A stretch of 64,000 bases of DNA from Candidatus Latescibacterota bacterium. Its GTDB lineage: Bacteria; Latescibacterota; UBA2968; GCA-2709665. Numbering within the stretch: the first letter of the stretch is position 1; each line of letters opens with the position of its first letter. The stretch lies in the NCBI GenBank assembly GCA_965237675.1, contig OZ250150.1, positions 736,001-800,000 of the forward strand, given 5' to 3'. This document shows, piece after piece, positions 8,805-62,661 of the stretch. The translations under genes were made by a program, and so were the position numbers. The notes beneath the pieces are model-generated. The model did no database searches. It was not told where the DNA came from and saw only the letters and a program-made list of their open reading frames with translations.

Positions 8805-8814
8805 CTATGGCTGA

Positions 8815-15838: not shown

Positions 15839-16420
15839 TTAACTACGGATAGTAGCGTATTCACCAGTACTTAATCTCCTTAAAATCTCTCGTCCAGCAG
15901 CACCTACTATAAAATCCTTATCGCCAGGTCTTGCCATTACGATCTTACCCATTGGCTCGATACTTCTATCAGAATTTGTTGGAGGGCAACGCTCGCATAC
16001 AAATGTCGTTTGCACGAAATCAAATGACGGTACAAGCTATGCATCGCAAATTGGACAGTAGCACCAAAGATTTGAGATCCCATTTCCAGACCATTGCCAA
16101 CGCCATTTAACTCCATAAATGGTGTCTTCTGTATAATTCCGAAATGAAGGTGTCTTGCTAGCTTGTTTTCTTAAACGTAGTTTAATAGAGCGAAATAAAC
16201 CGGCAATTACAAGAACCACAACAATTAAGATTAACCATACTGGTACTGCATAATCCGTAACTAATATTCGCCCTAACCACAAAACACAACTCCAAACCCA
16301 CCACAATAAATCTAAGAAAAACTCACGTACCAATGGTAACAGAATTATACCACCAACTGTCGTACCAATTATCGTTACAAGAATCCCATTTCGAACAGTG
16401 TATGGTTGTTTATCAGGCAT
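15839..16420 (-). pseudogene. Membrane protein with a CxxC...CxxC zinc ribbon, interrupted by an in-frame TAG
   Basis: ...NLWCYCPICDA*(TAG 16037-16039)LVPSFDFVQTTFVCERC...GREILRRLSTGEYATIRS*. The second CxxC pair lies after the stop. Confidence 0.7.
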
Positions 16421-16522
16421 ATTTCTTCCAAACTATCTCCTACCTCAACACCCATCGCTATCGGAAGGCGTTTCGAAGATTGTACTTTGAGGTTCGAATT
16501 GGGTCAATTTGCGAGATTTCCG

Positions 16523-16711
16523 TTATTTCGCCGATCTGATACTTTCGAGCAAGTCACGCAAGGAATATGCTCCACCCACGGCGAGGATTGTTAAGGCACC
16601 CTCCGCCAACTCACCTTCGCCGAAAAGTCCGACAGCTGCGACCGTAAGAAACCACGCGATGATCACAGCAGCCGCACCCTTCGCCGACAACCTGATTCTT
16701 GGAAGTCGCAT
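16523..16711 (-). CDS. Small two-TM hypothetical protein (62 aa)
   Basis: MRLPRIRLSAKGAAAVIIAWFLTVAAVGLFGEGELAEGALTILAVGGAYSLRDLLESIRSAK; GAGGTG RBS. Confidence 0.55.
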   Translation of the reverse strand: MRLPRIRLSAKGAAAVIIAWFLTVAAVGLFGEGELAEGALTILAVGGAYSLRDLLESIRSAK

Positions 16712-16897
16712 AATGACACCTCTATATGCTTGTTTTTCCAGATACACCTGAGCATATGTGAAGGTAGGAATCAGTCAAATGAAATTCCGCTTGAGACTGT
16801 GAACAGAAAATGTGCATTTTATATGTAGTTACTCTACATTTATCAAGGCGTTGCAGACACTTATCCCGTTGAATTGCAACTGGAAGATGGACAATTC

Positions 16898-17635
16898 ATG
16901 GCTCAAATACACTACACCCTTAAAGATCTACTGGACGACAAGAATGCTGAACTGTACGAGACCTTGGTCGCAAGGGTGAAGATAAACCTCAAGGTTAGTA
17001 ATGATGACTGTTGGACATCTGTGCTATCAGAAAACGTCGCATGTATCGGAGTACTCGATTCCGCATATCCAGCAGCCTGTTTCTCGCACGAGCTCTTGCA
17101 CATTAAACTCGAACTTGATGGAATGACCCGTCCATTTTTCATTGACAACGAAGACTTCGGCGAATTTGGCAGTGAGCTTATCTCGTTTCTGTACAACGAA
17201 CTCGCCCACCACAAGATGTATCCGGAATTCTTGGAAATGGGGTATTCACCAGAACAGTTCCTTTACGACTCTGACAGAAAGGATCTACGAAGAAGGTTAA
17301 GGCAGGATGTCCCGAAACTCGAACGGAGATGCAGGAAACAGAGTGGCAAGTTACAGGGTGGGCTAGCGGTCTTGATGCCATATCTGATTCTTAAGAGTCC
17401 AAATGACGCCGATAGGCCTATGCTCAGCATCGGAGAGAGGCTTGTGAAGATCGGCGACCCGCGTTTACTGTCTGGTGTAGACAAAGTTCTCGACACTTGG
17501 GTAAAGGCTCCGACTCTTGATTGCTGTCTCAGTCTCGCTCAACTCTTCAAGCTGGCAGGACGCCCCCGAATCGGATTCAGTCTAACTAAATCGTATAATG
17601 ACCTAATTAAAGCCGCGAATGTCGAGATTGACTAA
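16898..17635 (+). CDS. Hypothetical protein with an HExxH zincin-like motif
   Basis: FSHELLHIKL followed by NELAHHKMY. Start taken at ATG 16898. Confidence 0.65.
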   Translation: MAQIHYTLKDLLDDKNAELYETLVARVKINLKVSNDDCWTSVLSENVACIGVLDSAYPAACFSHELLHIKLELDGMTRPFFIDNEDFGEFGSELISFLYNELAHHKMYPEFLEMGYSPEQFLYDSDRKDLRRRLRQDVPKLERRCRKQSGKLQGGLAVLMPYLILKSPNDADRPMLSIGERLVKIGDPRLLSGVDKVLDTWVKAPTLDCCLSLAQLFKLAGRPRIGFSLTKSYNDLIKAANVEID

Positions 17636-34937: not shown

Positions 34938-35621
34938 ATGCCTATCCAACACACACTCTGGACAATCGACAATCCGCCGGTGGAAGTCGAGACATCCAAG
35001 CTTGCCGATGAGAAACGGCTGGAGGATATGATTGAGTCCAAACTTAGTATCCTTTCAGACGATTGGATGCTGATTGGTCGACAGATAGAAACGGATACTG
35101 GTGGACGAGTCGATCTACTGGCCATTGCATCGGACGCATCTCTAGTGTTGATTGAATTGAAACGCAACAAAACCCCACGCGACGTGATTGCACAGACACT
35201 TGACTACGCCGTTTGGCTGAAAAAATTAGATCCTGAAGATGTAACCGAACTCTATGAAAGATACAATTCCGGCGCGTCGCTCAGTAAGGCCTTTCAAGAT
35301 CGATTTGAAAGGGTCCTCGACGACGACGAAGAGCCAATTAATCATACCCACCAACTCGTCGTGGTCGCGTCAACCCTCGATCCAAGCAGCGAACGCATTG
35401 TAACGTACCTCCAAGGCTGGGGCGTTCCCATCAACGTGCTCACCTTCGAAGTTTTCCGTCATGGCAATACGCAATTCCTCAGCCGGGCCTGGTTGCTACA
35501 ACCGCTGGATACTATGGAATCCGCCACCTCCGGTCCCCGCGAAAGGCTCGCGTGGAACAATGAGTTCTATGCTTGCTTCGGTCACGACGAAAATCGCGAT
35601 TGGGACGAGGCAGTAAAATAT
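34938..35621 (+). pseudogene. 5' half of a NucS/DUF91-like PD-(D/E)xK endonuclease gene interrupted by the transposon
   Basis: EKRLEDMI...IGRQI..DTGGRVDLLAI...LIELKR...AQTLDYA. The frame reaches ...WDEAVKY at the TSD TAAAATAT (35614-35621). Confidence 0.9.
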
Positions 35622-35685
35622 GGGAATTATAACCCAAAGTGCCAAAAAGCAAAGCTTGGAAAGAGAAATCGAATAAGAAATCTGC

Positions 35686-35874
35686 CTACGCCCCCCGATT
35701 CTTTAGCCACGCTTTCCACGCCTTTTTCGTTTCCTCCCCCTTGCCTGATTCCACCAACGGCGGATCATCGGGAAAGATCGCCCGGACCGCTTCCTCTATC
35801 TCCGCTTTGCTCGACTGATACTCACTCCCGACAGCCTTGACAACCGGTTTCTTCTTTGCGGTCTCGGAACCCAT
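35686..35874 (-). CDS. Small cargo protein (62 aa)
   Basis: AAGGA RBS; last gene of the cargo operon, 18 nt downstream of the relE-like gene. Confidence 0.55.
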   Translation of the reverse strand: MGSETAKKKPVVKAVGSEYQSSKAEIEEAVRAIFPDDPPLVESGKGEETKKAWKAWLKNRGA

Positions 35875-35892
35875 AGTGTTTTTCCTTTTTCG

Positions 35893-36228
35893 TTATTTCT
35901 TGTCGTACGCGCCTTGCCGATGGTCCATATCTACGACATAGATTTTCCCCGAAAAACGTTTGTAAAAAATCCGATAGGGCCTCTTTTCAATCCTAAACAT
36001 GGGATCATCAAAAGGTCGTCCTTGTATCTTTTTCGACCCCTTCAGGCTTAGAGGATTTTTGAGACTTTCAATTTTCTCGACGGCAGAACGCCTAACCCTC
36101 GGTTGCAAAGCATCCAAAAATCCCCGGACAGTATCCCGAATGACAATTTCTTGCTCTGCGGGTTCAGGTTGTCCTGTGCCTCCTGTCAGCAAAGGAGCCT
36201 TCCTGGAACCTCCACGTGCTTTATTCAC
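35893..36228 (-). CDS. RelE/ParE-family toxin-like protein
   Basis: FLDALQPRVRRSAVEKIESLKNP...SKKIQG...MFRIEKRPYRIFY...IYVVDMDHRQGAY. GTGA overlap with the upstream gene. Confidence 0.8.
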   Translation of the reverse strand: MNKARGGSRKAPLLTGGTGQPEPAEQEIVIRDTVRGFLDALQPRVRRSAVEKIESLKNPLSLKGSKKIQGRPFDDPMFRIEKRPYRIFYKRFSGKIYVVDMDHRQGAYDKK

Positions 36229-36431
36229 CGACTGTCCCTCTTGGCTTTCTTGAAATATCTCTGTGTCTCCTTAGTGGAAAGCATCCTGCTCTTTCCCGTC
36301 CGAAGTTCCTCATCAATTTCTAAAGACCGGGACAGAAACGGATCTTCCTCCTGTTCCACAATAACATCATCCTGACGAGCACCACCCCGCACCCGTGCAA
36401 TGAATCCAAACACAACATCTGTAACGCCCAT
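36225..36431 (-). CDS. Putative antitoxin (68 aa)
   Basis: AAGGAGG RBS before ATG 36431 (MGVTDVV...). Acidic middle and a C-terminal EELRTGKSRMLSTKE helix. Coupled to the RelE-like gene. Confidence 0.6.
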   Translation of the reverse strand: MGVTDVVFGFIARVRGGARQDDVIVEQEEDPFLSRSLEIDEELRTGKSRMLSTKETQRYFKKAKRDSR

Positions 36432-36457
36432 GACAACCCTCCTTGTCGTTCTCACTC

Positions 36458-36568
36458 TTATCGACACGGACAGCAACGAATATTCGCCAGAACAGCCAGG
36501 ACAATCATCGCGCCCATCATTGTAATCCACATTACGAGGACGATCTTATCTGCCCGGCCCTCTTTCAT
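36458..36568 (-). CDS. 36-aa single-TM micro-peptide with a Cys-rich tail (not in the ORF track)
   Basis: MKEGRADKIVLVMWITMMGAMIVLAVLANIRCCPCR*, with a purine-rich GAGGTAGGGAA stretch upstream. Confidence 0.45.
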   Translation of the reverse strand: MKEGRADKIVLVMWITMMGAMIVLAVLANIRCCPCR

Positions 36569-36593
36569 GATCTCTATTCCCTACCTCTCCGCT

Positions 36594-36728
36594 TTAAAAA
36601 CCGCTCCGTGCGCTCCCGTAAGCCCTCAGAATCGTCTTTCTCTTCCTTGTCCGCATCCAACCCTCAACAACCTCTTTGGCGTCCTCTCCCGCCCTTACGC
36701 GCTCTATTAACTCTGTTGCCTTGTTCAT
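36594..36728 (-). CDS. Small cargo protein (44 aa), possibly frameshifted
   Basis: MNKATELIERVRAGEDAKEVVEG...; AGGGGG RBS and a TTGACA hexamer at 36771-36776 upstream. Confidence 0.45.
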   Translation of the reverse strand: MNKATELIERVRAGEDAKEVVEGWMRTRKRKTILRAYGSARSGF

Positions 36729-36863
36729 GGTAAACCCCCTGCTAAAATTGTCCAGAAAATTCTTGCGTCTTGTCAAGTGAGAATATTATATTGCGCTCGT
36801 TGCCCGACACTCTTTTTACACGGCATAAAGTAAAAGTCCGCCACCAAAAGAGGAGGAAATACC

Positions 36864-37745
36864 ATGCAACATTTATTCGGCTGGCTCTTTATTGCGACCT
36901 TTATTGTCACGATAGTCGGCCTGATAAAACCCTCCGCTTTATGCATAAAACGTCTTGCGACTCGACTTAGAGTCTTCTGGACGGGAACAACTGCATTATT
37001 TGTATTCTTCGTGCTCTTTAGCGCCGTTTCTCCAGAGACGGAAGACGCCAAACAAAGACGATTGGCTGAAGAAACGGAAGCCAAAGATCAAGAACGCGTT
37101 ACGGCTTTGCATGAAGCAGAACAAGCCAGAGCCGATGCAGAAACGCAAGCTAAGATCGAAGCAGAACTGGCCGCCGCCGAAAAGGCCAAAGAACGTGCCC
37201 GAAAAGACAAAGAGACACGAGAAGCCTTAGAACGCAAAGCAAACTTGGAGCGTGAAGCCAAAGAAAAAGCAGAATCCACACCCCATTTTTCCTTTACTGT
37301 AGACCAGTTCATGAATCGGTACACAAAAACAAGAAAAGTGATTGGTATCCGTCCATATTTCCTTCGGGAAACAAAAAAAACTGATTATGACGAATTTCAG
37401 GTGTTGATCCTGCAACCCAACGAAGACTCGCAATGGTACTTCTCAGTAAAAGTATCGAAAATTATAAATACCGTAGTGGCTTTTGAATATGTGCGTTTCA
37501 TCGTGAAAGGCGACGACCCAGGAGAACTCACAAAACAGTTTTTAACGGAAACCGTTGCCTTCATTGTAGGCATTGAGGATTTCGATCTGCCTGATGACAG
37601 ACTTGGGAAAAGACTCGATGATCTTGACTTCAATTCAGTCATGACAGAGGGACAGGAAACAAAAGCCTATGGCGAAAACGTCGTCTACAAAGCCGTATTC
37701 GTAAAAGCCGTATCAATGTTATCGTTGTCCGCAACGCCCCGATAA
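36864..37745 (+). CDS. Membrane-anchored coiled-coil cargo protein
   Basis: GAGGAGG RBS; two N-terminal TM helices, an Ala/Glu/Lys-rich coiled coil and a globular C-terminal domain. Confidence 0.8.
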   Translation: MQHLFGWLFIATFIVTIVGLIKPSALCIKRLATRLRVFWTGTTALFVFFVLFSAVSPETEDAKQRRLAEETEAKDQERVTALHEAEQARADAETQAKIEAELAAAEKAKERARKDKETREALERKANLEREAKEKAESTPHFSFTVDQFMNRYTKTRKVIGIRPYFLRETKKTDYDEFQVLILQPNEDSQWYFSVKVSKIINTVVAFEYVRFIVKGDDPGELTKQFLTETVAFIVGIEDFDLPDDRLGKRLDDLDFNSVMTEGQETKAYGENVVYKAVFVKAVSMLSLSATPR

Positions 37746-37759
37746 ATCTACACCGTCTC

Positions 37760-38104
37760 ATGAGCCAGGAGATACAAATGACCCAAGAATCCGAAGACGA
37801 AAAAATCGACCGGTTGTTTAAAGAACTTGGAACCCGCGTATACGCTGTCGAATGTATGATAGTAGGACTATGCCTACGTTTAGCGAGCACGCTTTCCGAA
37901 GACCCTAAAGCCGAAGTCGAAAAACTCAGAAACAATGCTCACCATATAATGAATCAATTTAACCTACTCCCCAATCTCTACGATTCAGAGTTTCATGGAA
38001 TTGCGGAGGCAAGATTGCATCTCCATGACCGTCTTACTCAGGTGAAGTCAAATATGGATGCTTTCCTCTCGCAACCCGCGCCTCAGACTCGGCACACACC
38101 TTGA
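37760..38104 (+). CDS. Hypothetical cargo protein
   Basis: 114-aa helical ORF 14 nt after the previous gene. An alternative start at the second Met follows AGGAG. Confidence 0.6.
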   Translation: MSQEIQMTQESEDEKIDRLFKELGTRVYAVECMIVGLCLRLASTLSEDPKAEVEKLRNNAHHIMNQFNLLPNLYDSEFHGIAEARLHLHDRLTQVKSNMDAFLSQPAPQTRHTP

Positions 38105-38225
38105 GGAACTCCTCCCTCGCCTCAAGATATGCCTCGTCGCTCGGATAATTTTCCGGTATAAATATGTCTGTATTCGGAATTCTCGGAATATCCTTTGCTA
38201 CTTCACTTGTTGGCCTCAAACTCAT
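38034..38225 (-). CDS. Small protein translationally coupled to the transposase
   Basis: Its ATG overlaps the transposase TGA (ATGA). Contains PENYPSDEAYLEAREEF. Confidence 0.5.
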   Translation of the reverse strand: MSLRPTSEVAKDIPRIPNTDIFIPENYPSDEAYLEAREEFLKVCAESEARVARGKHPYLTSPE

Positions 38226-39166
38226 GCCGTCAGTTCCTCATATTTAAGCCGCTTGCCGATCATGTCCCGGACGATCCACCCCATCTGGACAATCGTATCG
38301 GCCTCGCGGGCGTTGTGTCTTCCTGCAAACTCCGCAACGTACCGCCCAAGATGTTTTACGCTCAGCCGGTGATACGTTCCGTGATAACCCCTCTTGAGTA
38401 ACGCCCAGAAGGACTCCAAACCGTTCGTAGACGCTTGCCCGTCCACGTACTCCCCAGCACTGTGTTTCACCTGTTTGTGATGCACGCCGGACAAGCCTTG
38501 GTACGCAGTCGCTTCGTCCGTAAACACCTGCGCGCCCGGCGCAACCCTGTGATATACAAACTGCTTCAAAGTCTTACCGTCAACAGCCGCCGCAACCTCA
38601 GCGTCAATACGGCCCGTCTCCCGGTCTTTCGCCCCCACCACCGCCGTCTTGCCTACCGTACCACGTCCGGCGTGGAGTTTCTTTTTGGCATGTTTGTTCT
38701 TCTCTTTCCCGCCGATATACGTTTCATCTACCTCTACCGGCCCGGAGAAGAAATCGCCCTCATTCTCGAAAGCCTTGCGGATGCGGTGCGCCAGGTGCCA
38801 TGCGTTCTTCTGGGCGATGTCGAGATCCCGGTGTAACTTCATTGACGATACACCTTTGATGTTTGTGGTGAAAAGGTAGATCGCAATAAGCCAGTCATGG
38901 TATCCCAATTTGGAAGATTGCATGACCGTTCCAACACGGACGCTAAAACGCTTCCGGCAACCGTTACGTCGGCACCGCAAGGGCATGGACTTATGGGCCG
39001 TCCCGATCTGGATGTTGTCATAACCGCAATAAGGGCACCGGGGGCCTTCCGGCCAGCGGATGCGGGAGAAGAACACTTCCGCCGCTGCATCGTCGGGAAA
39101 CACCTTGAACAGTTTCTTGAGAGAAATCCCTTTTCTGTGATTTTTCCCCGGCCCCTTCGGTCCCAT
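38222..39166 (-). CDS. IS1595-family (ISXO2-like) DDE transposase
   Basis: Zn ribbon CPYC...CRRNGC, HTH SSMKLHRDLDI, VEVDETYIGG, VFTDE, V.HS..EYV, TNGLESFW, KHLGRYVAEF..RHN. Confidence 0.95.
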   Translation of the reverse strand: MGPKGPGKNHRKGISLKKLFKVFPDDAAAEVFFSRIRWPEGPRCPYCGYDNIQIGTAHKSMPLRCRRNGCRKRFSVRVGTVMQSSKLGYHDWLIAIYLFTTNIKGVSSMKLHRDLDIAQKNAWHLAHRIRKAFENEGDFFSGPVEVDETYIGGKEKNKHAKKKLHAGRGTVGKTAVVGAKDRETGRIDAEVAAAVDGKTLKQFVYHRVAPGAQVFTDEATAYQGLSGVHHKQVKHSAGEYVDGQASTNGLESFWALLKRGYHGTYHRLSVKHLGRYVAEFAGRHNAREADTIVQMGWIVRDMIGKRLKYEELTA

Positions 39167-39195
39167 CTCATCAACCCCCACAAAGGAGAACTACT

Positions 39196-39441
39196 ATGCC
39201 TCAAAACGAAAAACACACATGGACAACAGGTGAACTCGCCGCTACTTCTTTTCTTGCCATACGGGAAATCATTCGATCCCTCGACGACGAAACTCGACAA
39301 TCTCTTTCGGAAAACCTTCATCGTCGAGCTCTTGAGATTCAACAAGGGACATTATCAATTCATTTTCCTGGGCAAATTGACGGTGTTGTCGCCGAGAGTC
39401 TTCTATTGCTCTCGAAATACTCTGCCACTCCTGAATCCTAA
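39196..39441 (+). CDS. Hypothetical cargo protein (81 aa), antisense-overlapping
   Basis: AAAGGAG RBS at 39182-39188; helical protein-like composition. Confidence 0.45.
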   Translation: MPQNEKHTWTTGELAATSFLAIREIIRSLDDETRQSLSENLHRRALEIQQGTLSIHFPGQIDGVVAESLLLLSKYSATPES

Positions 39442-39457
39442 TAGCGTCCATTCCCAT
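39269..39457 (-). CDS. Small protein (62 aa) between the element promoter and the transposase
   Basis: AAAGGAG RBS, directly downstream of the sigma70-like promoter at 39502-39530. Confidence 0.5.
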   Translation of the reverse strand: MGMDAIRIQEWQSISRAIEDSRRQHRQFAQENELIMSLVESQELDDEGFPKEIVEFRRRGIE

Positions 39458-39501
39458 CGAACATCACTCCTTTAAACTTGTATCGTCTTTGTTTACAATT
39501 A

Positions 39502-39530
39502 AATATAACGATTTTATTAAGGCTTGTCAA
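39502..39530 (-). promoter_or_regulatory. Sigma70-type promoter just inside the transposon end
   Basis: TTGACA-N17-TATATT on the minus strand, pointing towards the transposase. Confidence 0.75.
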
Positions 39531-39570
39531 GCTAATTCTTGGCACTTTGGGTTATAATTCCCTAAAATAT

Positions 39571-39975
39571 GGCTTCATTTCCGGTGGCGGAGGTAAGTGG
39601 TATAGTAGCTCGCTAAAAATGCTGGAGAAGGGTGCCCGTGTCTGGGTAAAGATTCCTGGCAAGGGGTTCGTGGGCGTAGCCCGAATTAAAGGGTCAAGGC
39701 AATCAGCTACGGAGTTTAAGCTTGATGACGGACGTCCAGCGCTTGAAGTGTTGCAGGCGAAACACCACCGCGATGTCGGAGACGACCCCGAATTGATGGA
39801 ATACTTCGTGCCGGTCAAATGGCTCGATACTGTTTCAGTTGGCAAAGCCGTTCGGGAGCCTGGTATGTTTGGCAACCAGAACACTGTCTGTAAACCCAAA
39901 TCGAAAAAATGGCAGCCAACAATCGATAAATTGAAAGACGTTTTCAGAAAGTTTGACGACGAGTTTGAAATGTAA
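39571..39975 (+). pseudogene. 3' half of the interrupted endonuclease (EVE/PUA-like domain)
   Basis: After the second TSD the frame continues GFISGGGGKWYSSSLKMLEKGARVWVKIPGKGFVGVARI...GNQNTVCK. It joins in frame to give 362 aa. Confidence 0.9.
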
Positions 39976-40811
39976 CATTTCGTAGGAGCCTGTCGAAATC
40001 CCTCAGGCAGACACTCACGTCATATTATATATAATGGAATTTCGTAACTTTATATCGATATTTAGTATATCGACGCCTACGACGGGAGGTCCTCCGAAGG
40101 GCTCCTGGTCAACGGCACCGAAATTGCATACATCGATCTCCAAGACAAACTGGTACCCGCGTTCATCGGTTCGTCATTCACAACCTTGTAGATTGGTGCA
40201 AGTCAAACAAACACGCAATGATAAATGCCTGATAGTATTAAAATTCCACTTGTGATATCGATAGATTTATCGATACTATTTACTGCAAAGGAAAACGAAT
40301 CTGCAACGAAGTTCTGGCACGAGCGATATTTACATGGGTCAGATCCAAAGATTCCTGAAAAGAGCCGTGCGTGGGTTTTTGCTGTTTCTGGGTTTTCAAG
40401 TGCCCTGTAAAGTATACGAAATGGTCGAATTGTGATATTCGTAGTGCAGTCTGCATTATGCGTGTTCGGTGGACGTGTTGTGGATGTTCTGCCATGGCGG
40501 GGGGCGAGGTTTAAGGTGGCGCAACTGAGAATAATTGCCCAAATTGAGCAAACGGAATCCACGCCCCAATAGGAATTACACATTCGCCGCCACGGACCTA
40601 ATGGTGCTGAAAATGAGATTTGGCAAATGCCCTCGGTAGCTACGCTGCACGTCTAACCGATACCCATTGCGGGGAATCGAGGCAATGGGACGCGAACGCA
40701 TTGCGGTTCCTTCTGACGGAGCCGAATCGATGAGCGGACCTGTATCCGTTATGCGATCGAATTCAGCGAAATGTCCGTGTTAGTTGACAGCTACTGGAGA
40801 GAGCCGTTAAG

Positions 40812-54736: not shown

Positions 54737-55951
54737 CTATTTCTCCATGAAAGGGCCGCGCTGTTCGAGGCGTTGCAGCGTCTCTTGAAACGCCTCCGTG
54801 CCGTCGTCCTCCCACACGTCCAGACGGATGCCACGGGTATTGCCTTCCGGGAAGCCGGTGACGCGGGCGACGTTCGGAAATCCCTTCGTATAAAGCCTGT
54901 TTCCGCCCGGCAGGTGCAGGATGCCGATCGTGGTTGGGATAACCGTGGGTTTGTTGGCCGCACATACGGCCAGAGCGTCTTCATCGACCTCGACGCCGAG
55001 GCCGGGGCCCTCCGGTACCGGAGACGAACCGGCCGCCACCTCGATTCGCTGGCTGACAACGTCTTCGTCGTACTGATCGTCCAGGTTGGTGGAATGGGCC
55101 ACGTTCGGAATAACGGCGCCCATATGCAGGGCCATCGCCTTTGTGAGGGTACCGCCCGTGAGCTGGATGACCGACGAGACATTGGCCAGTGCCGCGGCAA
55201 AGCCGCGCACGATAGTGGGGCCGATTCCGCCTTCGCCGATCATATAGGCGTCGGCGCAACCCCGGATGATTTCCTGGCCGCCACCGAGCTGAGGGACGTG
55301 CATCAGCAGAGGAAAGCTGGTCTTCTGCCGCAGCAGGCGCCACCCTTCCACGTCGGACAGAACGAGAGGATCCTCGATCATACCGACCACGGGTGAGCCT
55401 TCCAACTCCTTCAGAATTCTCAGGACGGCCGCAAGCGGCCGATTGTGATTGAAGTCGTAGTGCATCTTGAATCCCGGCGGCGCCACCTCCTCCACCGCCC
55501 GGGTCTGTTCAAAAACGTCATAATAGGCGGACGTATGGATCTTGAAGATCATATATCCCTGGTCAACCGCCCGCACCACCTCCTTGGCCAGGTCTTCCGG
55601 TGACGCAGGGCGGGTCCACGCCGCCACGGGCACCCGGTCGCGTATCTTCTGGCCCATGAGCTTGTACGCGGGAATCTCCAGATGCTTGCCCATGGCGTCG
55701 TACAGAGCGCCCATCAGGCCGGAATTGAGATCGGCGTTGATAAAGTCGAAGGGGTCGCGGCCGACAAGGTGCTCGACAGTGGATCTGTCGGGCGCCTCGC
55801 AGCGCGCGTCGCCGTACCCGACGATGTCGTTGTCCGTTGTAATTTTGAAAACAGTGCGATGGTTCAAGTTGATGAACCGCGCTTTCTGATCGGCGTTCCG
55901 GTCGGCGATTCTCGGATAGATGGGGATGATTTCGATGTCGGTAATTTTCAT
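54737..55951 (-). CDS. Mandelate racemase / muconate lactonizing enzyme (enolase superfamily)
   Basis: MKITDIEI, ALYDAMGK..EIPAYKLMG, FKIH, HYDFN, IEDP, VPEGPGLGVEVDE. Confidence 0.9.
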   Translation of the reverse strand: MKITDIEIIPIYPRIADRNADQKARFINLNHRTVFKITTDNDIVGYGDARCEAPDRSTVEHLVGRDPFDFINADLNSGLMGALYDAMGKHLEIPAYKLMGQKIRDRVPVAAWTRPASPEDLAKEVVRAVDQGYMIFKIHTSAYYDVFEQTRAVEEVAPPGFKMHYDFNHNRPLAAVLRILKELEGSPVVGMIEDPLVLSDVEGWRLLRQKTSFPLLMHVPQLGGGQEIIRGCADAYMIGEGGIGPTIVRGFAAALANVSSVIQLTGGTLTKAMALHMGAVIPNVAHSTNLDDQYDEDVVSQRIEVAAGSSPVPEGPGLGVEVDEDALAVCAANKPTVIPTTIGILHLPGGNRLYTKGFPNVARVTGFPEGNTRGIRLDVWEDDGTEAFQETLQRLEQRGPFMEK

Positions 55952-56254
55952 GATGAATTCCTTAATAACGGGATAACGGGAAGATTACGGCCTGGAATCG
56001 CGGCAATGTCCGTATATCAGGGTTGTCGAACTCCGCTCGTCAGACCTCAGCGGGCCTCGTAATATCGACGCGGGGCAGTATCCTGCGCAAGAGGGATCTT
56101 GACCGGTCCGCCGTGGACCGGATTTGCGCTGTGCGCCTATGCGTGCTATATATCGCCGTGTTACCTTGACAACAAGGATGTTTCGATAATATCACTTGAC
56201 TTCCATCTATTCAAAGACCGACATTTGCTCGATGGAGAGAGGAATCCACATATC

Positions 56255-56920
56255 ATGGCTGTAGAGGTAGGACAGTTGGCGCCCAACTTCGGGGTCTCAA
56301 GCTGGGTGCAGGGCGCCCCGACCAACTTCGACCGGGAGAGGGATCACATCGTGGTGCTGGAAGTCTTCCAGGTCAATTGTCCCGGATGCTTCATGTATGC
56401 CATTCCTGATGCGATACGCGTGTACAACAGGTCCAAGGACGACGGGGTGCGCGTCCTTGGACTGGCCACCGCCTTTGAGGACTTTGACAAAAACACGCTT
56501 GACAACCTCAGGCTCCTGGCTGAAACCGGTCAGGTGATAGGGGAGACCAGGAGTGCCCTTGCCATGAGCGGGCAGTTGCACGAGGGTGACAGGCTGTCCT
56601 ACAGGATCCCGTTTCCGCTCGGGATGGACCACCTTACGAGGATGCCCGGCGAACCCGGCCACGAAGCGATTATGGACGTGATATACCCCCAGATACCCAA
56701 CTTCGACTCGCAGCCTGAGAACTACAGGGTGCAGATCATACAGAGGGTGAAGGACTATCTGAGGGCAAAGGAATATTCGGCCGAGACGTTTGAGAAGTTT
56801 GACCTGCGCGGAACGCCGTCCACCATACTCGTCGACCGCAAGGGAGTCCTCAGGGACGTCTCTTTTGGCCGGACGGACCGCCTTGGGGAGATGATCCAGG
56901 GGATCCTCAGCGAAGACTGA
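56255..56920 (+). CDS. TlpA/AhpC-like thioredoxin-fold redoxin with archaeal-like codon usage
   Basis: APNF.VSSWVQG, FQVNCPGC (CxxC), ATAFEDFD, GTPSTILVDRKG. Start at ATG 56255. Confidence 0.9.
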   Translation: MAVEVGQLAPNFGVSSWVQGAPTNFDRERDHIVVLEVFQVNCPGCFMYAIPDAIRVYNRSKDDGVRVLGLATAFEDFDKNTLDNLRLLAETGQVIGETRSALAMSGQLHEGDRLSYRIPFPLGMDHLTRMPGEPGHEAIMDVIYPQIPNFDSQPENYRVQIIQRVKDYLRAKEYSAETFEKFDLRGTPSTILVDRKGVLRDVSFGRTDRLGEMIQGILSED

Positions 56921-56965
56921 GTCCGCGAGAGCGCATCTCAATCGCGGCTGATTGGATGTCGCTTT

Positions 56966-57886
56966 TCATACCTCGACGGGTCGTGTAATATCCACGCCGG
57001 GCAGTATGCAGCGCAAGAGGGATCTTAACTGACCTGAGGTGGACGGATCGATGTTGGCGCCGGGGTGGCGGACGTAGCTGCTTCTGATCAGCCCGCGCAG
57101 CCGGAAAATCTCCTTACGGATCGCCACGCCGGGTTGCTGTTCAAAGACGATGAGTGGCAGGTAGCGGCGATAAATGTCGTGCACGGCGTCGAAGTCGCTG
57201 CTCCGTGCAGCCCGGACCATGGCAATCAGAACTTCAGGGAAGGCGAAGCCGGTCATGAAACCGTGGGCGCCGCGGGCCAGGTCATATGCGGCGTAGAGGG
57301 CGCCAAGCCCGGTGAGTACGGTTACTGAACGGTCCCCGATGCCATTCAGGATGGCGGTAATTCTGGGCGGGGTGGGTGTTGCCTCTTCCTTGATGCATGC
57401 CACACGCGGTATCTCGCGGATCAGACGGTGAATGAGGGAGACAGACATGTGGACCTGGGTGGAGGCGGGGTGGTCCTGCACGACGATGGGAATGGAGATT
57501 CCCTCGGAAACTTCGCTGAAGAATTCAAAGATGCGGTCTTCGTTGGGAACCGGTTCTCGCATCGGCGTGACCATCACGCCAGCCGCACCGAGAGATTCGG
57601 CCATCCGGCTGAGTTCCAGGGTAGCCTGGGTCCCGCTGTGGCTTGTGCCGACGATAACCGGGATGCTGCCGTCCAGGGCGTTCACGGCGGTCCCGATCAG
57701 CCGCTCCCGTTCGGCATCCAGCATCCGGTTGGATTCACCCAGTACGCCGATCATCGTGACGCCGTCGACGCCGATGTCGGCCATAAAGCGTACCGTCCGG
57801 TCGAAGGATTCCAGGTCGAGGTCGCCGCTGTCGTCAAACGGCGTAACGAGGATGGGAAAAACGCCTTCGAAGGTTACGGTCGCCAT
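56966..57886 (-). CDS. Dihydrodipicolinate synthase (DapA/NanA)-family aldolase
   Basis: GVFPILVTPF, GVLGE, VPIVVQD-like segment, CIKEE (Schiff-base Lys), GFMTG. Confidence 0.9.
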   Translation of the reverse strand: MATVTFEGVFPILVTPFDDSGDLDLESFDRTVRFMADIGVDGVTMIGVLGESNRMLDAERERLIGTAVNALDGSIPVIVGTSHSGTQATLELSRMAESLGAAGVMVTPMREPVPNEDRIFEFFSEVSEGISIPIVVQDHPASTQVHMSVSLIHRLIREIPRVACIKEEATPTPPRITAILNGIGDRSVTVLTGLGALYAAYDLARGAHGFMTGFAFPEVLIAMVRAARSSDFDAVHDIYRRYLPLIVFEQQPGVAIRKEIFRLRGLIRSSYVRHPGANIDPSTSGQLRSLLRCILPGVDITRPVEV

Positions 57887-58083
57887 ATTTGAATATGCTG
57901 CCTTTTGTCCGTCATCATGGTAGCAATTCGAAAAAACGGTGCGGTCCAAGGAGAAAACAGGGGTTCACACCGGGCTCCAGGGCACCGGTTTCGATCGTCC
58001 AACGGGGCTGACCGGTCTGATTCCGTAACGGTATGTCGGTGATATCGGATACCCGGGCCTGGGTGTTAATTTTCGACCCGCAT

Positions 58084-61000
58084 TCAAGCTTTCAATACGT
58101 GGAGGCCGCCATCCTCTGAACAAACAACGATTTCAGGGATGCCGTCCCCGTCGACGTCCGCGGGAACAATATCCAGGATGGGGCCGCCGGCTTGAAATCG
58201 GCCGACCTGGCGTCCATCCGCATTGGCGAGGAGGCGCACGGTACCGTCCTCGACGCCCGCCGCGACTTCGAGTTTTCCGTCGCCGTTGAAGTCGGCCGCC
58301 GCGATGCAGCGAACGACTTCGCCGAGGTCGGCGCGCCAGTGCAATGTCTTACCATCGCCCTTGACGACGTAGACGTTGAAACTCATGGACGATGCGACGA
58401 TTTCATCCAGGCCGTCGCCATCCATGTCGGCCATCAGGACCCGGGTGACTTCGTCGCCCGTGTTGAATTGCGAGATGAGAGCCCCGTCGGCGTTGAGAAG
58501 GTGGATGTGGGTGTCCGCGCCGGCGAAGGCGACTTCCTTCAGACCGTCGCCGTCGACGTCGGCGGCCGCGGCGCAATTGGCGCGAGGGCCCGTGGACGGA
58601 TGATAGGACCAGCGGATTTCGCCGGTCCCGTCGATGCAGTGCCAGCGGTGGTAGTCCGTCCCGGCGATAACCTCGTCCCGGCCGTCGCCATCCAGGTCGG
58701 CGGCGCAACCGGTGGACGAGGGGCGCACGGTCATCTGGCGCCAGAGTTCTTCCCCCTCGTGGGTGAAGGCGTGATAGCGCCACGATTCCACGGCGGCGAT
58801 GACCTCGAGGTTGCCGTCGCCGTTGATGTCGCCGGTGAAAACGGACCGCACGACGGGATCCTGGAAGTAAAAGGGGATTTTGACGTCCCATTTCAACTTC
58901 CCCCTCGCGTCGAGGACGTACACCCGGGTGTCTTCCGAACCGGCGATGATTTCTGGCCGCCCGTCGTTTTCCAGGTCAGCGGTCCACACGGAGCGGACAA
59001 CGCCGCCGGTGGGATAGTGCCACAGGGAGCTACCGTCTTTATATGCGTGAATCGAATGGGTGCGGCCGCCGGCAACGATTTCGTCCTTACCGTCGCCGTC
59101 CAGATCTGAGGCCCGTACAGACAGCAAAGCGCTGTCCTCCCTGCGAGACCAGAGCGCGGGAAGATCCGGAATGCGGCCCCTCCTGCGCGAGGTCCGGAAG
59201 CGTGGCGCGAAATGCGGTCCGCTCTTTTTGGCCGCGGCCCTGCGGAGTCTCGCCAGGACCGGGGAGTTCAGAGCGATGCGGTGTCTACCTCCCGGCGCAC
59301 GGAACGTGACGGCGCCGTTCGAACCATCGGCGGCGATCGGCTTGCCGTCCACTTCGACCTCCGCTCCGCTTCCCGCGGACAGAGTAATTGTTGTCGGAAC
59401 GGAGGTGACGAGAGTGCCCCGCGCCACTGACAGATCGTATTCGAGGGACACGGGATGGTCACTCTTGAACGTGGTATCTTCCCACGCAACTTCCGTTCCG
59501 TCCACAATAGCAATTGTGCACGGTGAGATCTGAAATTGGGCTGCCGCAACGGTGGGCCCGGAAGGTAGCGCCAGCGCTCTGCCGGACGTGCCGACGCCGG
59601 CAAAGAGGGTTTCCGATCCGCCATCGATGCGTACGGCATTCTCCGCGATCCGTGTCATTCTCAGCTTCTGCGGATTGCAATAAAGCAGGTTGAAATAGCG
59701 GTAGGGTTCCCCTTTTTTGAGATGCACGTCAACGATCTGCTGAAGTACGCGTACGACGGGTTCGGCGTGGGTGTAGTCGGCCCAGTTTTTCCCGGTAACG
59801 GGGTCATCCTCGAGCTTGAGCCTGGGACCGGGCAGACCATGGATAAAAAAGGTTTTGCCGCTTTGTTCGACGGCCAGGCCGCCGTTGCGACACTGCACCG
59901 AGCCCAGGGTCTGCCAGACGGCGCGGAAGCAATAGTCCGCTTCTTCAAGCGCTTCCATTTCGTCGACGACCAGGAAAAAGGCCCCCCGGTTCCACAGGAT
60001 ATTCCGGCGCCAGTCCACGCCGCTGTACGAACGAAGGGTAGTCTGAGAGAATCCGGTATTCACATTGGCGGAAAATCGTTCCAGTTCCGCAAAGGGCGGG
60101 ATTTCGGCGGATTGCCCGTTTTTGAGAACGAGGACACCGTTGTGGAACTTGGGCAGCGATTTGATGTAGTCGCAATCGGCCAGCCAGATGCGGTTATTCT
60201 GGGTCAGGCGGCAGATCGAGTTGCCGTCGTAATGTTTGTGGCCGCCGTTGGAGAGGCCGTCGAGAAAGAGATACTGGTTCTCAGGGTCGAAACCATCCCG
60301 GAAGACGACCTTGTCGAAGGTCTTGTTCAAAGGCAGATGGTCGCTGCCACTGTTGGATTCGTAATAGAGCGGATCCACCGGGTAGACCTGAGCGCCCTCC
60401 ATGTCCGTGGGTTCGACCGGATCGACGTCTCGGCTGTGTTCATATGGATGCGATTTGGGGGCCATGGCCCTTTTCTTGTCGAGCATCCACTGGTAACGGC
60501 CGTCGCCGGTCACGCAGACCATGGCTCGCAGGTAGGGCACTTCAGTCCACGTTCCGAACGGGGAGGCCGTGTCTCCGTTGGGCACGGCGCAGCCCAGGTT
60601 ATCCGTTGTAAGGATGGCGTAATCGCCGGCGCGCTGCGCATTGCCGGTATCGAAGAAAGTCATATCACCCGAACTGAGGGTGTAGCGCATCGCGTGGAAG
60701 TGCGTGCGCCACTGGTAGTGGCCGCAGTCCTCCAGGGGTTTGAAGGCGTTGACCTGCGCCCTGAAGCATTTCTCCGAGATGGCCAGCCACCGGTAGGCCT
60801 GCGTAGCTTTGTAATATTTCTTAAAATAGACCCCGGCATAGTGCAGGCCCAGGGCGGCGTACGTGGCGTGGTTGTGACGGACGTGCTCATTGTCGACGTT
60901 GCCGACGTGCGATACGCAGTCTGTGATGAACTCGAACAGGATGCGGGTAATCCGCAGGCGGTCTTCATCGGAGATGACAGGGCTCTCTTCCACGAGGTCC

Positions 61001-61770
61001 CATCCCGGCATGACGTACTGCAGCGCGAAGTCCGCGTCGAAACCCCACACGCTGCCATAGTTGTCCGGATCGGACCTGACATGGTCGTACATCCGGTAGA
61101 CCAGTCGCTTATAAATCTCCGCGTAGACGTTGTTTCCGGTGAGCCCGTAGTGCAGGCCGCGCTGGCCGATCCGGCCCCACAGCCCGGTATGACATCCCCG
61201 CTTGAGGTCATCGTCGGCTTCCGCCATCTCGGCGTCGGGATCCGGTTCGACGCGGATACCGGCAACATCCCGGGCATCCGCACCGCATCGAAGATCGAAT
61301 ACGGGACCCAGGGTGAGGGTAGACCCCGCCTTGAGGCGATCCAGCAGGATTCCTGTAGCGGTTTCGACACCGGACAGGTCGCTGCCGAAGACACCCACGG
61401 CATTCCTGCCGTTGCCCCAGGGATCATGAATTGTATGAAGAAGATGGCCGCCTTTACCGGGGTAGTGGTCGTCCGCCGGGGTGTAGCTGTAGCCGTAGAG
61501 CCGGAAGACCGCCCGGTTGGTGTTCACGTTGCCAAGCAGGATGAGGTTTCTTCGCGGAGTCTTTGAGACGGCGGCATGGTCCAGTATGGGAAGTTCGGCG
61601 CCGGAAAGGTCGTGGATTTTTGTCTGGACTGACTCGGCAAGGGCGGCGTACCGTTCATCCGACGGACGCACGATGGCGGCCATGGGTCGCCCGTCTTCCA
61701 CCAGGCTGGTGTCCGGGTACCGCGGCTTGGGCTTTTTGAGGCTTTTGAGAGATGGGTTCCGAGGTGGCAT
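58084..61770 (-). CDS. Large lyase-like protein with a C-terminal FG-GAP/VCBS repeat propeller
   Basis: HNHATY and GHKHYDGNSI..HNGVLV (heparinase/alginate-lyase-like). Repeated DLDGDGxxE motifs at the C-terminus. Start at ATG 61770 or GTG 61809. Confidence 0.8.
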   Translation of the reverse strand: MPPRNPSLKSLKKPKPRYPDTSLVEDGRPMAAIVRPSDERYAALAESVQTKIHDLSGAELPILDHAAVSKTPRRNLILLGNVNTNRAVFRLYGYSYTPADDHYPGKGGHLLHTIHDPWGNGRNAVGVFGSDLSGVETATGILLDRLKAGSTLTLGPVFDLRCGADARDVAGIRVEPDPDAEMAEADDDLKRGCHTGLWGRIGQRGLHYGLTGNNVYAEIYKRLVYRMYDHVRSDPDNYGSVWGFDADFALQYVMPGWDLVEESPVISDEDRLRITRILFEFITDCVSHVGNVDNEHVRHNHATYAALGLHYAGVYFKKYYKATQAYRWLAISEKCFRAQVNAFKPLEDCGHYQWRTHFHAMRYTLSSGDMTFFDTGNAQRAGDYAILTTDNLGCAVPNGDTASPFGTWTEVPYLRAMVCVTGDGRYQWMLDKKRAMAPKSHPYEHSRDVDPVEPTDMEGAQVYPVDPLYYESNSGSDHLPLNKTFDKVVFRDGFDPENQYLFLDGLSNGGHKHYDGNSICRLTQNNRIWLADCDYIKSLPKFHNGVLVLKNGQSAEIPPFAELERFSANVNTGFSQTTLRSYSGVDWRRNILWNRGAFFLVVDEMEALEEADYCFRAVWQTLGSVQCRNGGLAVEQSGKTFFIHGLPGPRLKLEDDPVTGKNWADYTHAEPVVRVLQQIVDVHLKKGEPYRYFNLLYCNPQKLRMTRIAENAVRIDGGSETLFAGVGTSGRALALPSGPTVAAAQFQISPCTIAIVDGTEVAWEDTTFKSDHPVSLEYDLSVARGTLVTSVPTTITLSAGSGAEVEVDGKPIAADGSNGAVTFRAPGGRHRIALNSPVLARLRRAAAKKSGPHFAPRFRTSRRRGRIPDLPALWSRREDSALLSVRASDLDGDGKDEIVAGGRTHSIHAYKDGSSLWHYPTGGVVRSVWTADLENDGRPEIIAGSEDTRVYVLDARGKLKWDVKIPFYFQDPVVRSVFTGDINGDGNLEVIAAVESWRYHAFTHEGEELWRQMTVRPSSTGCAADLDGDGRDEVIAGTDYHRWHCIDGTGEIRWSYHPSTGPRANCAAAADVDGDGLKEVAFAGADTHIHLLNADGALISQFNTGDEVTRVLMADMDGDGLDEIVASSMSFNVYVVKGDGKTLHWRADLGEVVRCIAAADFNGDGKLEVAAGVEDGTVRLLANADGRQVGRFQAGGPILDIVPADVDGDGIPEIVVCSEDGGLHVLKA

Positions 61771-61878
61771 GCCGGGCTCCTGAGAGAGAGTCGAATCGTG
61801 GGTCTGCACCCGTTAATGGAGTTCGGTCTACGTATCGGCCGGGACACCGTGCCGCCTCCGAAACGGGTAAGATCTTCC

Positions 61879-62661
61879 CTACTGTTTACCGATGAGTTTC
61901 TTCAGGTAGGCGATTTCATGTTCGGCGGTCTCGTAGGGCGGATGATGGCTGCCGTGTTCGATCGAAATATAGCCGTCGAAGCCCTTGGATTGGAGTCGAC
62001 GCAGGAATGCGGCGAAGTCCACGTCGCCGGAGTCCAGAAACGTGAGCCGCGGCCAGTTTCCCAACCAGTTGTGGGCGTGTAGATGGACAACGTGTTCACC
62101 GAGTTGCTCGGCGGTATGAAAGACGGATTCGCCGACGAGCGGGGTCTGGAGGTTGACGACGAGGTTGTCCATACCCACGTCATCGAGTAGTTTCAGAGTA
62201 CTCGGACTGGTGTCCGTTAGGTTGGGGCCGTGGTGGATGATCTGGTGGGTTTCCAATGGGAAGACGATATCGTGGACGGCGCCCATTTCACAGATTTTCT
62301 GCAAGCCCCTGACACAGGCGTCCCATTGCCGGGCTGCGGCGTCCGCACTCCCCACGTTGCCGGTGTAGGTGCGTATAAACGGACAGTTCAGTTCGACCGC
62401 ATAGCCGATGAAGGTTTCAGCATCCCGGATACTCTGGTCCCACGTCGCCCGGCTGGTGGTGAAGTCGAAGTAGGGGCAGATTTGCACGATCTGAAGGTTG
62501 TGTTCGGCCGCGGTTGAACGGACCCACCCCAGATCCGCGTGGCAGAGGTACTGTTGCCACAGTTCGATGCCGTCATAGCCCAGTCCGGCAAGGTAGGGGA
62601 TGGCTTTTTCCTGGTCGGCCTGCGTATTGCCGAAGGCGTTGGTGCAGAAAGCGGATTTCAT
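61879..62661 (-). CDS. Sugar phosphate isomerase/epimerase (xylose isomerase-like TIM barrel)
   Basis: GYDGIELW, LETH, HLHAHN, GDVDF, GFDGYISIEH. Confidence 0.9.
   Translation of the reverse strand: MKSAFCTNAFGNTQADQEKAIPYLAGLGYDGIELWQQYLCHADLGWVRSTAAEHNLQIVQICPYFDFTTSRATWDQSIRDAETFIGYAVELNCPFIRTYTGNVGSADAAARQWDACVRGLQKICEMGAVHDIVFPLETHQIIHHGPNLTDTSPSTLKLLDDVGMDNLVVNLQTPLVGESVFHTAEQLGEHVVHLHAHNWLGNWPRLTFLDSGDVDFAAFLRRLQSKGFDGYISIEHGSHHPPYETAEHEIAYLKKLIGKQ

Follow-up and report, generated by a model that had tools for sequence, protein, structure and literature searches.

A redoxin-like gene in Latescibacterota bacteria with probable origins in an old transfer from Nitrosopumilaceae archaea

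The DNA analyzed in this study, hereafter called the window, is a 64,000-nucleotide stretch of contig OZ250150.1 (positions 736,001 to 800,000, forward strand) from a Candidatus Latescibacterota bacterium (assembly GCA_965237675.1). An open reading frame (ORF) of 221 codons without an internal stop lies on its plus strand at window positions 56255 to 56920, and is referred to here as the redoxin gene. An earlier inspection of these letters (the sequence-only reading) had proposed that this gene was acquired recently and directly from a thaumarchaeon. As also noted in that inspection, and as borne out by the list of ORFs, the redoxin gene is the sole plus-strand gene amid minus-strand genes. 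The features of the locus that are considered in this study are as follows, in window coordinates.

56255..56920, plus strand: redoxin-like coding sequence, 221 amino acids, predicted thioredoxin-fold CPGC protein of probable Nitrosopumilaceae ancestry (ORF, relatives, and fold)
56232..56254, plus strand: purine-rich leader with an AAAGGA-type Shine-Dalgarno sequence about 11 nucleotides before the ATG, common to bacterial copies
56232..56927, plus strand: unit apparently moved between bacteria, with full DNA homology to copies in another family (blastn)
56378..56389, plus strand: codons of the C42-P-G-C45 active-site motif (CPGC at residue 42)
56034..56118, no strand assigned: left copy of an 85-nucleotide direct repeat, a decayed DHDPS 3' end located upstream of the redoxin gene (78% identity, spacing 926)
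56960..57044, no strand assigned: right copy of the 85-nucleotide direct repeat, overlapping the last ~26 DHDPS codons (repeat search)
54737..55951, minus strand: enolase-superfamily (MR_MLE) sugar-acid dehydratase-like gene, native left neighbor (Pfam PF13378, E 6e-21)
56966..57949, minus strand: DHDPS-family lyase, right neighbor, with its stop codon at 56966 (Pfam PF00701, E 5e-35)
58084..61809, minus strand: FG-GAP / beta-propeller protein, native neighbor (FG-GAP repeats, Pfam)
61879-62661, minus strand: further ORF (ORF list)
Neighborhood of the redoxin gene, minus strand: heparinase II/III-like gene (ORF list and Pfam scan)

The start codon was assigned to the ATG at 56255 because most of the 120 relatives listed are 220 or 221 amino acids long and because the conserved leader ends immediately before it, at 56254. 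For the same reasons, a longer ORF of 273 amino acids that begins with a TTG codon at 56099 was rejected as spurious.

The redoxin gene exhibits a highly unusual choice of codons. Its 18 Arg codons comprise 11 AGG, five CGC, and two CGG, and its 13 Ile codons comprise six ATA, five ATC, and two ATT, exactly as had been counted by the sequence-only reading for AGG and ATA. When seven neighboring genes are pooled, AGG accounts for 24 of 256 Arg codons and ATA for six of 185 Ile codons (Fisher p values of 5e-7 and 2e-5 versus the redoxin gene). A genome-wide baseline was established with 3591 non-overlapping ORFs that start with ATG and span at least 150 amino acids (genome size of 5.6 Mb, 58% GC), wherein AGG and ATA each represent 11.4% of the codons for their amino acids. 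Only the redoxin gene among these ORFs has an AGG share of 0.6 or more, and it ranks first of the 3506 that carry at least 10 Arg codons, with the runner-up at 0.47. The gene matches its genome in GC content (0.58), and its oddity is confined to the choice among synonymous codons and to the choice between Lys and Arg.

A search of 5.8 billion clustered proteins yields 7338 matches to the predicted protein. Among the matches listed, one group is 76-91% identical to the window protein; a second, large group (approximately 71-75%) includes proteins named for Nitrosopumilus. The resemblance to Nitrosopumilus proteins that the sequence-only reading had pointed out is exemplified by P0053, whose source name is Nitrosopumilus maritimus TlpA-family disulfide reductase, and which is 72% identical over 100% of its length. 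Similar searches of species-representative genomes place ten bacterial loci at the top (79-91% identity), with records titled Latescibacterota, Latescibacteria, or uncultured bacterium. Of the best 80 loci, one other (L044, 73% identity) is titled only 'bacterium', and the remaining 69 are Nitrosopumilus, Nitrosarchaeum, or other thaumarchaeal records (68-75%). The view that the gene is foreign to its host lineage is supported, and the nearest non-bacterial relatives are from Nitrosopumilaceae (at most 74%), whereas the proposal of a direct transfer into this genome is not supported, given that ten Latescibacterota metagenome-assembled genomes (MAGs) carry closer relatives and that the bacterial copies point to one entry followed by spread.

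Within the phylum, matches are found in 18 of 168 genomes and in five of 49 genera: eight of the 15 genomes in the genus of the window, and 10 of 76 in a second family. The closest homologues are indeed bacterial, and vertical inheritance is seen within the genus, with a patchy occurrence in the phylum overall. Three of the 18 matches are fragments, and these are decaying copies. The fragments (loci L090-L092, second family) cover residues 103-221 (G102:C1:6914676-6915032), residues 184-221 (G164:C2:306121-306234), and residues 1-91 in two frames (G165:C15:30138-30406). Locus L044 was taken as lying outside Latescibacterota because it is absent from the matches of the phylum-wide scan. Carriers therefore include two Latescibacterota families and at least one bacterium from outside the phylum. 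When the L044 protein was used to scan species-representative genomes again, no further bacterial phylum appeared near it among the matches listed, where Latescibacterota are followed by approximately 70 archaeal rows. Separately, an 81% identical protein (P0021) has a source name indicating a Gemmatimonadetes/Gemmatimonadota MAG (82-kb contig). This protein falls inside the clade formed by the genus of the window, beside L007, and it represents either an outdated label or a further carrier lineage.

The distribution on the archaeal side is very different. A match is present in 367 of 401 Nitrosopumilaceae genomes, always at 74% identity or less (359 of 393 when eight genomes flagged as unpublished are set aside). 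Among 52 archaeal loci with at least 1.6 kb available on both sides, the gene is accompanied by ribosomal protein L15e in 50, by a 192-amino acid ORF in 50, and by a HEAT-repeat gene in 51. At the five bacterial loci tested, all three neighbors are missing. The redoxin gene is a core chromosomal, syntenic gene of Nitrosopumilaceae, a family of ammonia-oxidizing archaea.

The archaeal proteins of this group, annotated as 'TlpA family protein disulfide reductase / peroxiredoxin' with 221 amino acids, match the window protein in full-length collinear alignment (65-74% identity), length, CPGC motif, and an inserted segment. However, AT-rich archaeal copies typically carry 18 Lys and 5 Arg residues, versus 7 Lys and 17 Arg in bacterial copies. 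The archaeal genes are also under tighter constraint, with a ratio of nonsynonymous to synonymous substitution rates (dN/dS) of 0.07, compared with a median of 0.17 over 105 Latescibacterota pairs that likewise indicates purifying selection.

Archaeal and bacterial copies also differ in their upstream regions. Of the 15 other bacterial loci compared, 13 (including copies from the other family) have a leader resembling the one of approximately 20 nucleotides that precedes the window gene; the resemblance is weak in L044 and lacking in L089. None of the 17 archaeal loci compared has such a leader, and 16 of them instead carry a TATTTAA- or TTTTTAA-like box approximately 25-45 nucleotides upstream. 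To establish the extent of homology among bacterial copies, window positions 55950-57050 were aligned by blastn with L002, L003, L004, L005, L008, and L087. Only the region from 56232 or 56240 to between 56923 and 56929 matches (86-92% identity). The flanks of the window gene are unrelated to those of the other-family copies, and homology stops within ~25 nucleotides of the ORF, only 3-10 nucleotides past the stop codon. Genes beside L002 and L003 share 32-63% protein identity with their best matches in the window's genome (G000), whereas the redoxin gene product is 84-88% identical between the two families. In total, bacterial copies reside in at least four different neighborhoods. Because these copies share a non-coding leader and form one clade (see below), one entry followed by bacterium-to-bacterium spread is the favored interpretation.

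Known types of mobile elements do not appear to explain this movement. An integron cassette or transposon was considered and rejected: no attC-like repeat is present, homology ends 3-10 nucleotides after the stop codon, and positions 55500-57600 hold only one 14-nucleotide inverted pair, with its arms 1.8 kb apart. No mobile-element gene was recognized among the ORFs beside L002, L005, and L044, as judged by reading first residues and best G000 matches rather than by a Pfam scan. At L044, the redoxin gene is immediately preceded on its own strand by a DHDPS-family gene (L044:4979-5953), and two sulfatase-like genes follow. This DHDPS protein is only 24% identical to that of the window, and the recurrence of such a gene may be due to chance.

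Phylogenetic trees were constructed from 150 protein sequences (quick tree), from 73 protein sequences that include 10 GC-rich archaeal copies recovered by a DNA search (careful tree), and from 24 DNA sequences. Bacterial copies form one clade in all three trees (95 with a star, 100/99, and 100/100), and the combined archaeal and bacterial clade is set apart from the outgroups (99 with a star in the quick tree, 99/89 in the careful tree). As judged from these sequence comparisons, the window protein belongs to the 221-amino acid redoxin orthologue group of Nitrosopumilaceae. When the careful tree is rooted on distant relatives, the bacterial clade branches within the archaeal family, following three GC-rich archaeal lineages. 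This is the nested placement expected from the sequence-only reading, but its statistical support is weak, as detailed below, and the tree alone is not proof of nesting.

Therefore, the direction of transfer is argued from distribution, synteny, and codons. In the archaeal family the gene is almost universal and keeps its synteny. In bacteria, by contrast, it occurs rarely and in scattered lineages, has a foreign composition, and has decayed repeatedly. In addition, codon changes within the bacterial clade run toward host usage. These findings suggest that the gene very probably passed from archaea to bacteria. The redoxin gene in Latescibacterota is horizontally acquired (a xenologue), as indicated by its patchy occurrence, its atypical codons, its empty and scarred sites (although these are interpreted as secondary losses), and a tree at odds with that of the organisms.

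A comparison of individual codon positions provides insight into the origin of the AGG excess. Among 81 AT-rich archaeal copies, the median numbers of Lys and Arg codons are 18 and 5, compared with 7 and 17 among bacterial copies, and the sum of both remains steady at ~23-26. All 11 AGG sites of the window gene align with archaeal AAA, AAG, AGA, or AGG codons in at least 93% of the AT-rich copies, whereas only one of its seven CGN sites does so (Fisher p value of 4e-4). Eight of these AGG sites are Lys in the majority of AT-rich archaeal copies and three are Arg (AGA), and four of the seven CGN codons align with archaeal CAA or CAT. At seven of the 11 AGG sites, Lys (AAA or AAG) is still present in at least one other bacterial copy, and AGG and CGG coexist at several. 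Living copies thus display the series AAA, AAG, AGG, CGG. Because Lys persists at these seven sites, the AGG excess must in part have arisen after transfer, rather than simply reflecting the preference of the donor. Five more derived members of the genus have moved further in this direction, and their consensus carries 8 AGG versus 13 CGN codons and 2 ATA versus 11 ATC codons.

The Ile codons behave differently. ATA occurs at six sites of the bacterial consensus, and at five of these the AT-rich archaea have ATT. A change from ATT to ATA is not expected in a host that prefers ATC. GC-rich Nitrosopumilaceae (flank GC of 0.58-0.71) make heavy use of AGG and ATA in both the redoxin gene and neighboring ORFs, as had been predicted for Cenarchaeum-like archaea. 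For example, AGG represents 10 of 15 Arg codons in L107, 9 of 16 in L111, 9 of 14 in L112, 7 of 12 in L113, and 10 of 15 in L114, with ATA occurring 4-7 times. In consensus, other-family bacterial copies have AGG 11, CGN 5, ATA 8, and ATT 0, a profile similar to the one obtained for GC-high archaeal copies (AGG 10, CGN 4, ATA 5, ATT 1). However, GC-rich archaeal copies share just 65-72% identity with the window protein and do not group with the bacterial clade in the trees. On balance, we lean slightly toward a moderately to strongly GC-rich archaeal donor, for which a Cenarchaeum-like organism is plausible.

Foreign genes are known to drift toward the composition of their host (amelioration), and a GC-driven shift replaces AT-rich Lys codons with GC-rich Arg codons. 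The present case is distinct in that the intermediate codons can be observed at the same sites across orthologues, and in that the signature has persisted through the diversification of a genus.

Genomes related to that of the window retain a record of events at the site itself. The 85-nucleotide direct repeat that brackets the redoxin gene is not a dispersed element, as the genome contains just two copies. Part of its left copy is found ahead of the gene in each of the seven other carriers in the genus (L001, L086, L006, L007, L009, L010, and L088) and also at L082, where a scar remains. In eight genomes of the genus, including that of the window, the redoxin gene is positioned just upstream of the enolase-family gene, which is 90-96% identical among 12 same-genus loci with or without the redoxin gene. 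Only the window, L001, and L086 have the DHDPS gene beside the redoxin gene. A remnant of 42 amino acids is present in L007, and the gene was not found in the other eight same-genus loci examined, among which are the four remaining carriers. Insertion at the DHDPS 3' end with duplication of the target is the mechanism that we infer from this arrangement.

Some members of the genus have no redoxin gene at this location. At the empty sites L081, L083, L084, and L085, the enolase and FG-GAP genes are adjacent, with gaps of 70 bp (L083) and 118 bp (L081), whereas the 340-bp gap of L082 retains the repeat and the last ~50 nucleotides of the redoxin gene. In a tree of three flanking genes (5709 columns, with nine of 10 branches starred), empty sites occur in two places among carriers. 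This nesting indicates that the gene has been lost at least twice, in addition to the event that left the L082 scar. Between the window and five more distant carriers, the number of synonymous substitutions per synonymous site (dS) is 0.53-0.67 for the redoxin gene and 0.50-0.84 for its flanks. The use of one site, the flank-like divergence, and the losses together indicate that the transfer is old. Thus, although the archaeal ancestry proposed by the sequence-only reading is supported, its conclusion that the transfer was recent is not.

We propose, with a probability of roughly 0.8, that the redoxin gene derives from one old archaea-to-bacteria transfer, followed by spread among bacteria and then by vertical descent with losses in the genus. 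According to this proposal, one copy of a core Nitrosopumilaceae gene would have crossed into bacteria, where the archaeal TATA-type box in front of it would have been replaced by a short Shine-Dalgarno leader. A bare unit of ~0.7 kb, comprising only leader and ORF, would then have moved among bacterial lineages. In the ancestor of the genus, this unit would have been inserted between the DHDPS-family and enolase-family genes of a minus-strand sugar-acid locus, leaving an 85-nucleotide duplication of the DHDPS 3' end. Thereafter it would have passed down vertically under purifying selection, with several species deleting it once more. The excess of AGG and ATA would be a relic of an archaeal protein that was rich in Lys (AAA) and that encoded Arg as AGA. 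GC pressure would have altered these codons one base at a time, from AAA to AAG to AGG to CGG and from AGA to AGG. This shift could have begun in a GC-rich archaeal donor or after transfer, and it clearly went on within bacteria.

Several observations weigh against this proposal or against parts of it. Among the three closest genomes (window, L001, and L086), dS for the redoxin gene is only 0.084 and 0.16, which is 2-5 times below the values for adjacent genes. Likewise, dS to the other-family copy L002 is only 0.21, even though L002 is outside the genus clade (98/99 with a star). A simple vertical history does not explain these low values, which among close carriers may reflect slow synonymous change or allele exchange. 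Backbone support for placing the bacterial clade inside the archaea is weak (81/20, 68/89, and 44/75), and an approximately unbiased (AU) test does not reject a tree that keeps all 43 archaeal rows together (difference of 7.9 log-likelihood units, p value of 0.30). The sister of the bacterial clade is P0033, a protein from a 2404-nucleotide contig, which points to no particular donor. The next relatives outside the combined clade are P0121 and P0122, from Acidobacteriota and Gammaproteobacteria/Arenicellales MAGs (53-55% identity), along with Nitrososphaeraceae proteins (48%). With such mixed outgroups, the deeper history of the family is not purely archaeal, and P0121 and P0122 are possibly related to the archaeal family through other transfers. 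Matches of the window protein to Pfam models fall below curated cut-offs (23 versus 26 bits). Finally, a scan of positions 55900-57100 yields no promoter-like site on the gene's own strand, one on the minus strand, and no terminator, which is no more than shuffled sequences give and is uninformative about transcription.

Other histories were weighed against the same data. The mixed outgroups and the AU result would suit a reversed direction, wherein the gene was originally bacterial and an ancestor of Nitrosopumilaceae took it up. This we consider unlikely, as it would require a native bacterial gene to be rare and patchy in its own domain (18 of 168 genomes and five of 49 genera in the phylum), to reside as a bare ORF in unrelated neighborhoods, to exhibit the most atypical Arg codon use of its genome, and to be decaying in several genomes, while being near-universal and syntenic in the archaeal family. 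The changes from Lys to Arg, in which AAA or AAG gives way to AGG and then CGG, moreover run toward host usage within the bacterial clade. A recent, direct transfer from a co-resident, GC-rich, Cenarchaeum-like thaumarchaeon, with AGG and ATA simply inherited, would account for the ATA codons that are difficult to derive from ATT in an ATC-preferring host, for the AGG and ATA habit shared by GC-rich Nitrosopumilaceae copies and their neighboring ORFs, and for the similarity of the codon profiles of GC-high archaeal and other-family bacterial copies. Nevertheless, we regard it as improbable. The nearest copies are bacterial at 79-91% identity, none of the 401 archaeal genomes carries one above 74%, and the GC-rich archaeal copies are at 65-72%. 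Furthermore, eight members of the genus carry the gene at the same site, and its divergence from five of them resembles that of the flanks. Bacterial copies group as a single clade and have a bacterial leader in common, and Lys is still found in other bacterial copies at seven of the 11 AGG sites.

The diversity of genomic contexts, at least four across two families and one other lineage, could alternatively be explained by several independent archaea-to-bacteria transfers, one per lineage and neighborhood. The single bacterial clade (100/99 and 100/100) and its non-coding leader of ~20 nucleotides, which archaeal copies lack, make this quite improbable. An artifact of assembly or binning, wherein an archaeal fragment was misjoined into a bacterial contig, might be suspected given the odd codon usage, the opposite strand orientation, and an estimated genome contamination of 8%. 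However, the GC content of the gene equals that of the genome, the same flanks are found in seven other genomes of the genus, and no flanks are held in common with archaeal copies. A 2911-nucleotide contig from sequencing run X1, which is possibly the source sample, spans 55700-57300 with zero differences. Contigs from run X3, which belongs to another study, bridge both junctions (55898-56270 and 56841-57272), again with no differences. The contig is therefore not chimeric at this locus, and an artifact can be given almost no weight.

We favor the single old transfer, therefore, and it is a well-anchored case, with a syntenic gene carried almost throughout the family on the donor side, a single bacterial clade, a switch of translation signals, an insertion site with a duplication, and repeated losses. 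Reports of transfer from archaea to bacteria are far scarcer than those of the opposite direction. Among the papers listed by full-text literature searches, none addresses transfer from Nitrosopumilaceae to Latescibacterota or this protein. The event is of a known kind, and this instance is newly documented. The codon series from AAA through AAG and AGG to CGG shows how a foreign gene is remolded. It also serves as a warning for efforts to date transfers by codon usage, because the strongest codon outlier of this genome predates the genus.

Regarding the protein product, the CPGC motif is kept in all 107 aligned close bacterial and archaeal copies. Among 37 sequences that include distant relatives, residues Q39, N41, C42, and G186-T187-P188 are invariant, and C45 is conserved in at least 90%. 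An AlphaFold2 model based on these 37 aligned sequences has a mean predicted local distance difference test (pLDDT) score of 93. Foldseek comparisons of this model with the PDB yield 500 counted matches, all with E values of 0.001 or less, and the 37 rows listed are thioredoxin-fold proteins. The best matches are 3eyt and 3lor (E value of 1e-12; template modeling (TM) scores to target of 0.80-0.87). The redoxin gene product is thus, as judged from this model, a thioredoxin-fold protein with a CxxC active site. Thioredoxins carry a conserved cis-Pro loop that faces the active site, and the invariant G186-T187-P188 is a candidate for this loop.

The two best structural matches, 3lor (Corynebacterium glutamicum 'thiol-disulfide isomerase') and 3eyt (SPOA0173), share with the window protein the thioredoxin fold and a CxxC motif at the start of the first long helix. 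Their titles suggest that both are structural-genomics entries. They differ in that they comprise ~160 residues and are only 25-27% identical, whereas the window protein has ~85 extra residues (roughly 89-173) between the matched stretches. This inserted segment is mostly helical in the model. By sequence, too, 3lor and 3eyt are the best PDB matches (phmmer E values of 2.8e-18 and 1.2e-14), and they align in two stretches that skip query residues ~89-173. Pfam models for AhpC-TSA (PF00578) and Redoxin (PF08534) match residues 5-77 only, at 23.0 bits versus a gathering cut-off of 26 and at 20.4 versus 26.6. Many close relatives carry one of these labels in a precomputed Pfam table, and the family is therefore borderline for these models rather than alien to them.

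Two more specific assignments were considered and rejected. Peroxiredoxins (AhpC/Prx) carry their peroxidatic Cys in a PxxxT/SxxC motif. The residues leading to C42 are V-F-Q-V-N-C, which places the invariant Gln39, and not Thr or Ser, at position -3, and peroxiredoxin structures first appear at Foldseek rank 31, with TM scores to query of 0.43-0.47. The envelope thiol-disulfide oxidoreductases of cytochrome maturation (ResA, TlpA, and the DipZ C-terminal domain) share the fold class and CxxC chemistry (Foldseek ranks 8-50). However, the NCBIfam ResA model gives only 19.7 bits (E value of 6e-4) versus a cut-off of 170, no N-terminal hydrophobic anchor or signal is apparent on reading the sequence by eye, and no cytochrome-maturation gene is found among the genes of the window. 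The archaeal neighbors are housekeeping genes (for a Rad50-like ATPase, a HEAT-repeat protein, ribosomal protein L15e, and a CxxCxxCC protein), with no redox partner among them. Based on the modeled fold and conserved residues, we predict that the product is a soluble dithiol-disulfide oxidoreductase.

Sequencing runs provide some information on the occurrence of carriers. Over positions 56240-56890, run X3 yields several variant contigs with word depths of 41-75, along with window-identical contigs at 15-18. The variant contigs also exceed the flanks in depth, as would be the case if several carriers lived together, and several carriers in one sample are thus suggested. RNA run X18 contains a single 169-nucleotide contig that matches 56814-56878 with three differences and is then unlike the window, and thus comes from a relative. 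RNA run X20 contains one 195-nucleotide contig over 55860-56047, which covers only the neighboring gene and spacer. Neither contig is evidence for or against expression of the redoxin gene. These runs bear only slightly on the co-residence of sponge symbionts envisaged by the sequence-only reading, in that a 195-nucleotide contig matching the neighboring gene comes from a run labelled sponge metagenome.

In one report (PMC8163846), sponge-associated Latescibacteria (class UBA2968) are described as enriched in glycoside hydrolases and carbohydrate esterases. The gene content of the window fits that description as given there, which is not a demonstration of habitat. If carriers and donors do share sponge hosts, the redoxin gene would be a candidate marker for cross-domain gene flow within one microbiome. 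A more speculative extension, which we hold only tentatively, is that a core archaeal redox gene was 'bacterialized' once through the gain of a Shine-Dalgarno leader and circulates as a naked ORF of ~0.7 kb, without a recognizable mobile element, among unrelated bacteria that probably have animal (sponge) hosts in common with the archaeal donors. The gene would then be niche-adaptive, kept where useful and deleted elsewhere, and the low dS values would reflect ongoing exchange of alleles.

Other segments of the genome also have an atypical composition. Stretches of 42-49% GC are located at window positions 7001-9000, 14001-17000, and 35001-40000, whereas the remainder is ~58-64% GC, and these may be other foreign or mobile segments. 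Among the next-highest AGG shares are those of two low-GC (0.47) ORFs, G000:C1:1917221-1917736 (6 of 14, and also with ATA at 7 of 14 Ile codons) and G000:C1:752898-753635 (6 of 15), the latter corresponding to window positions 16898-17635. Both are possible further foreign genes.

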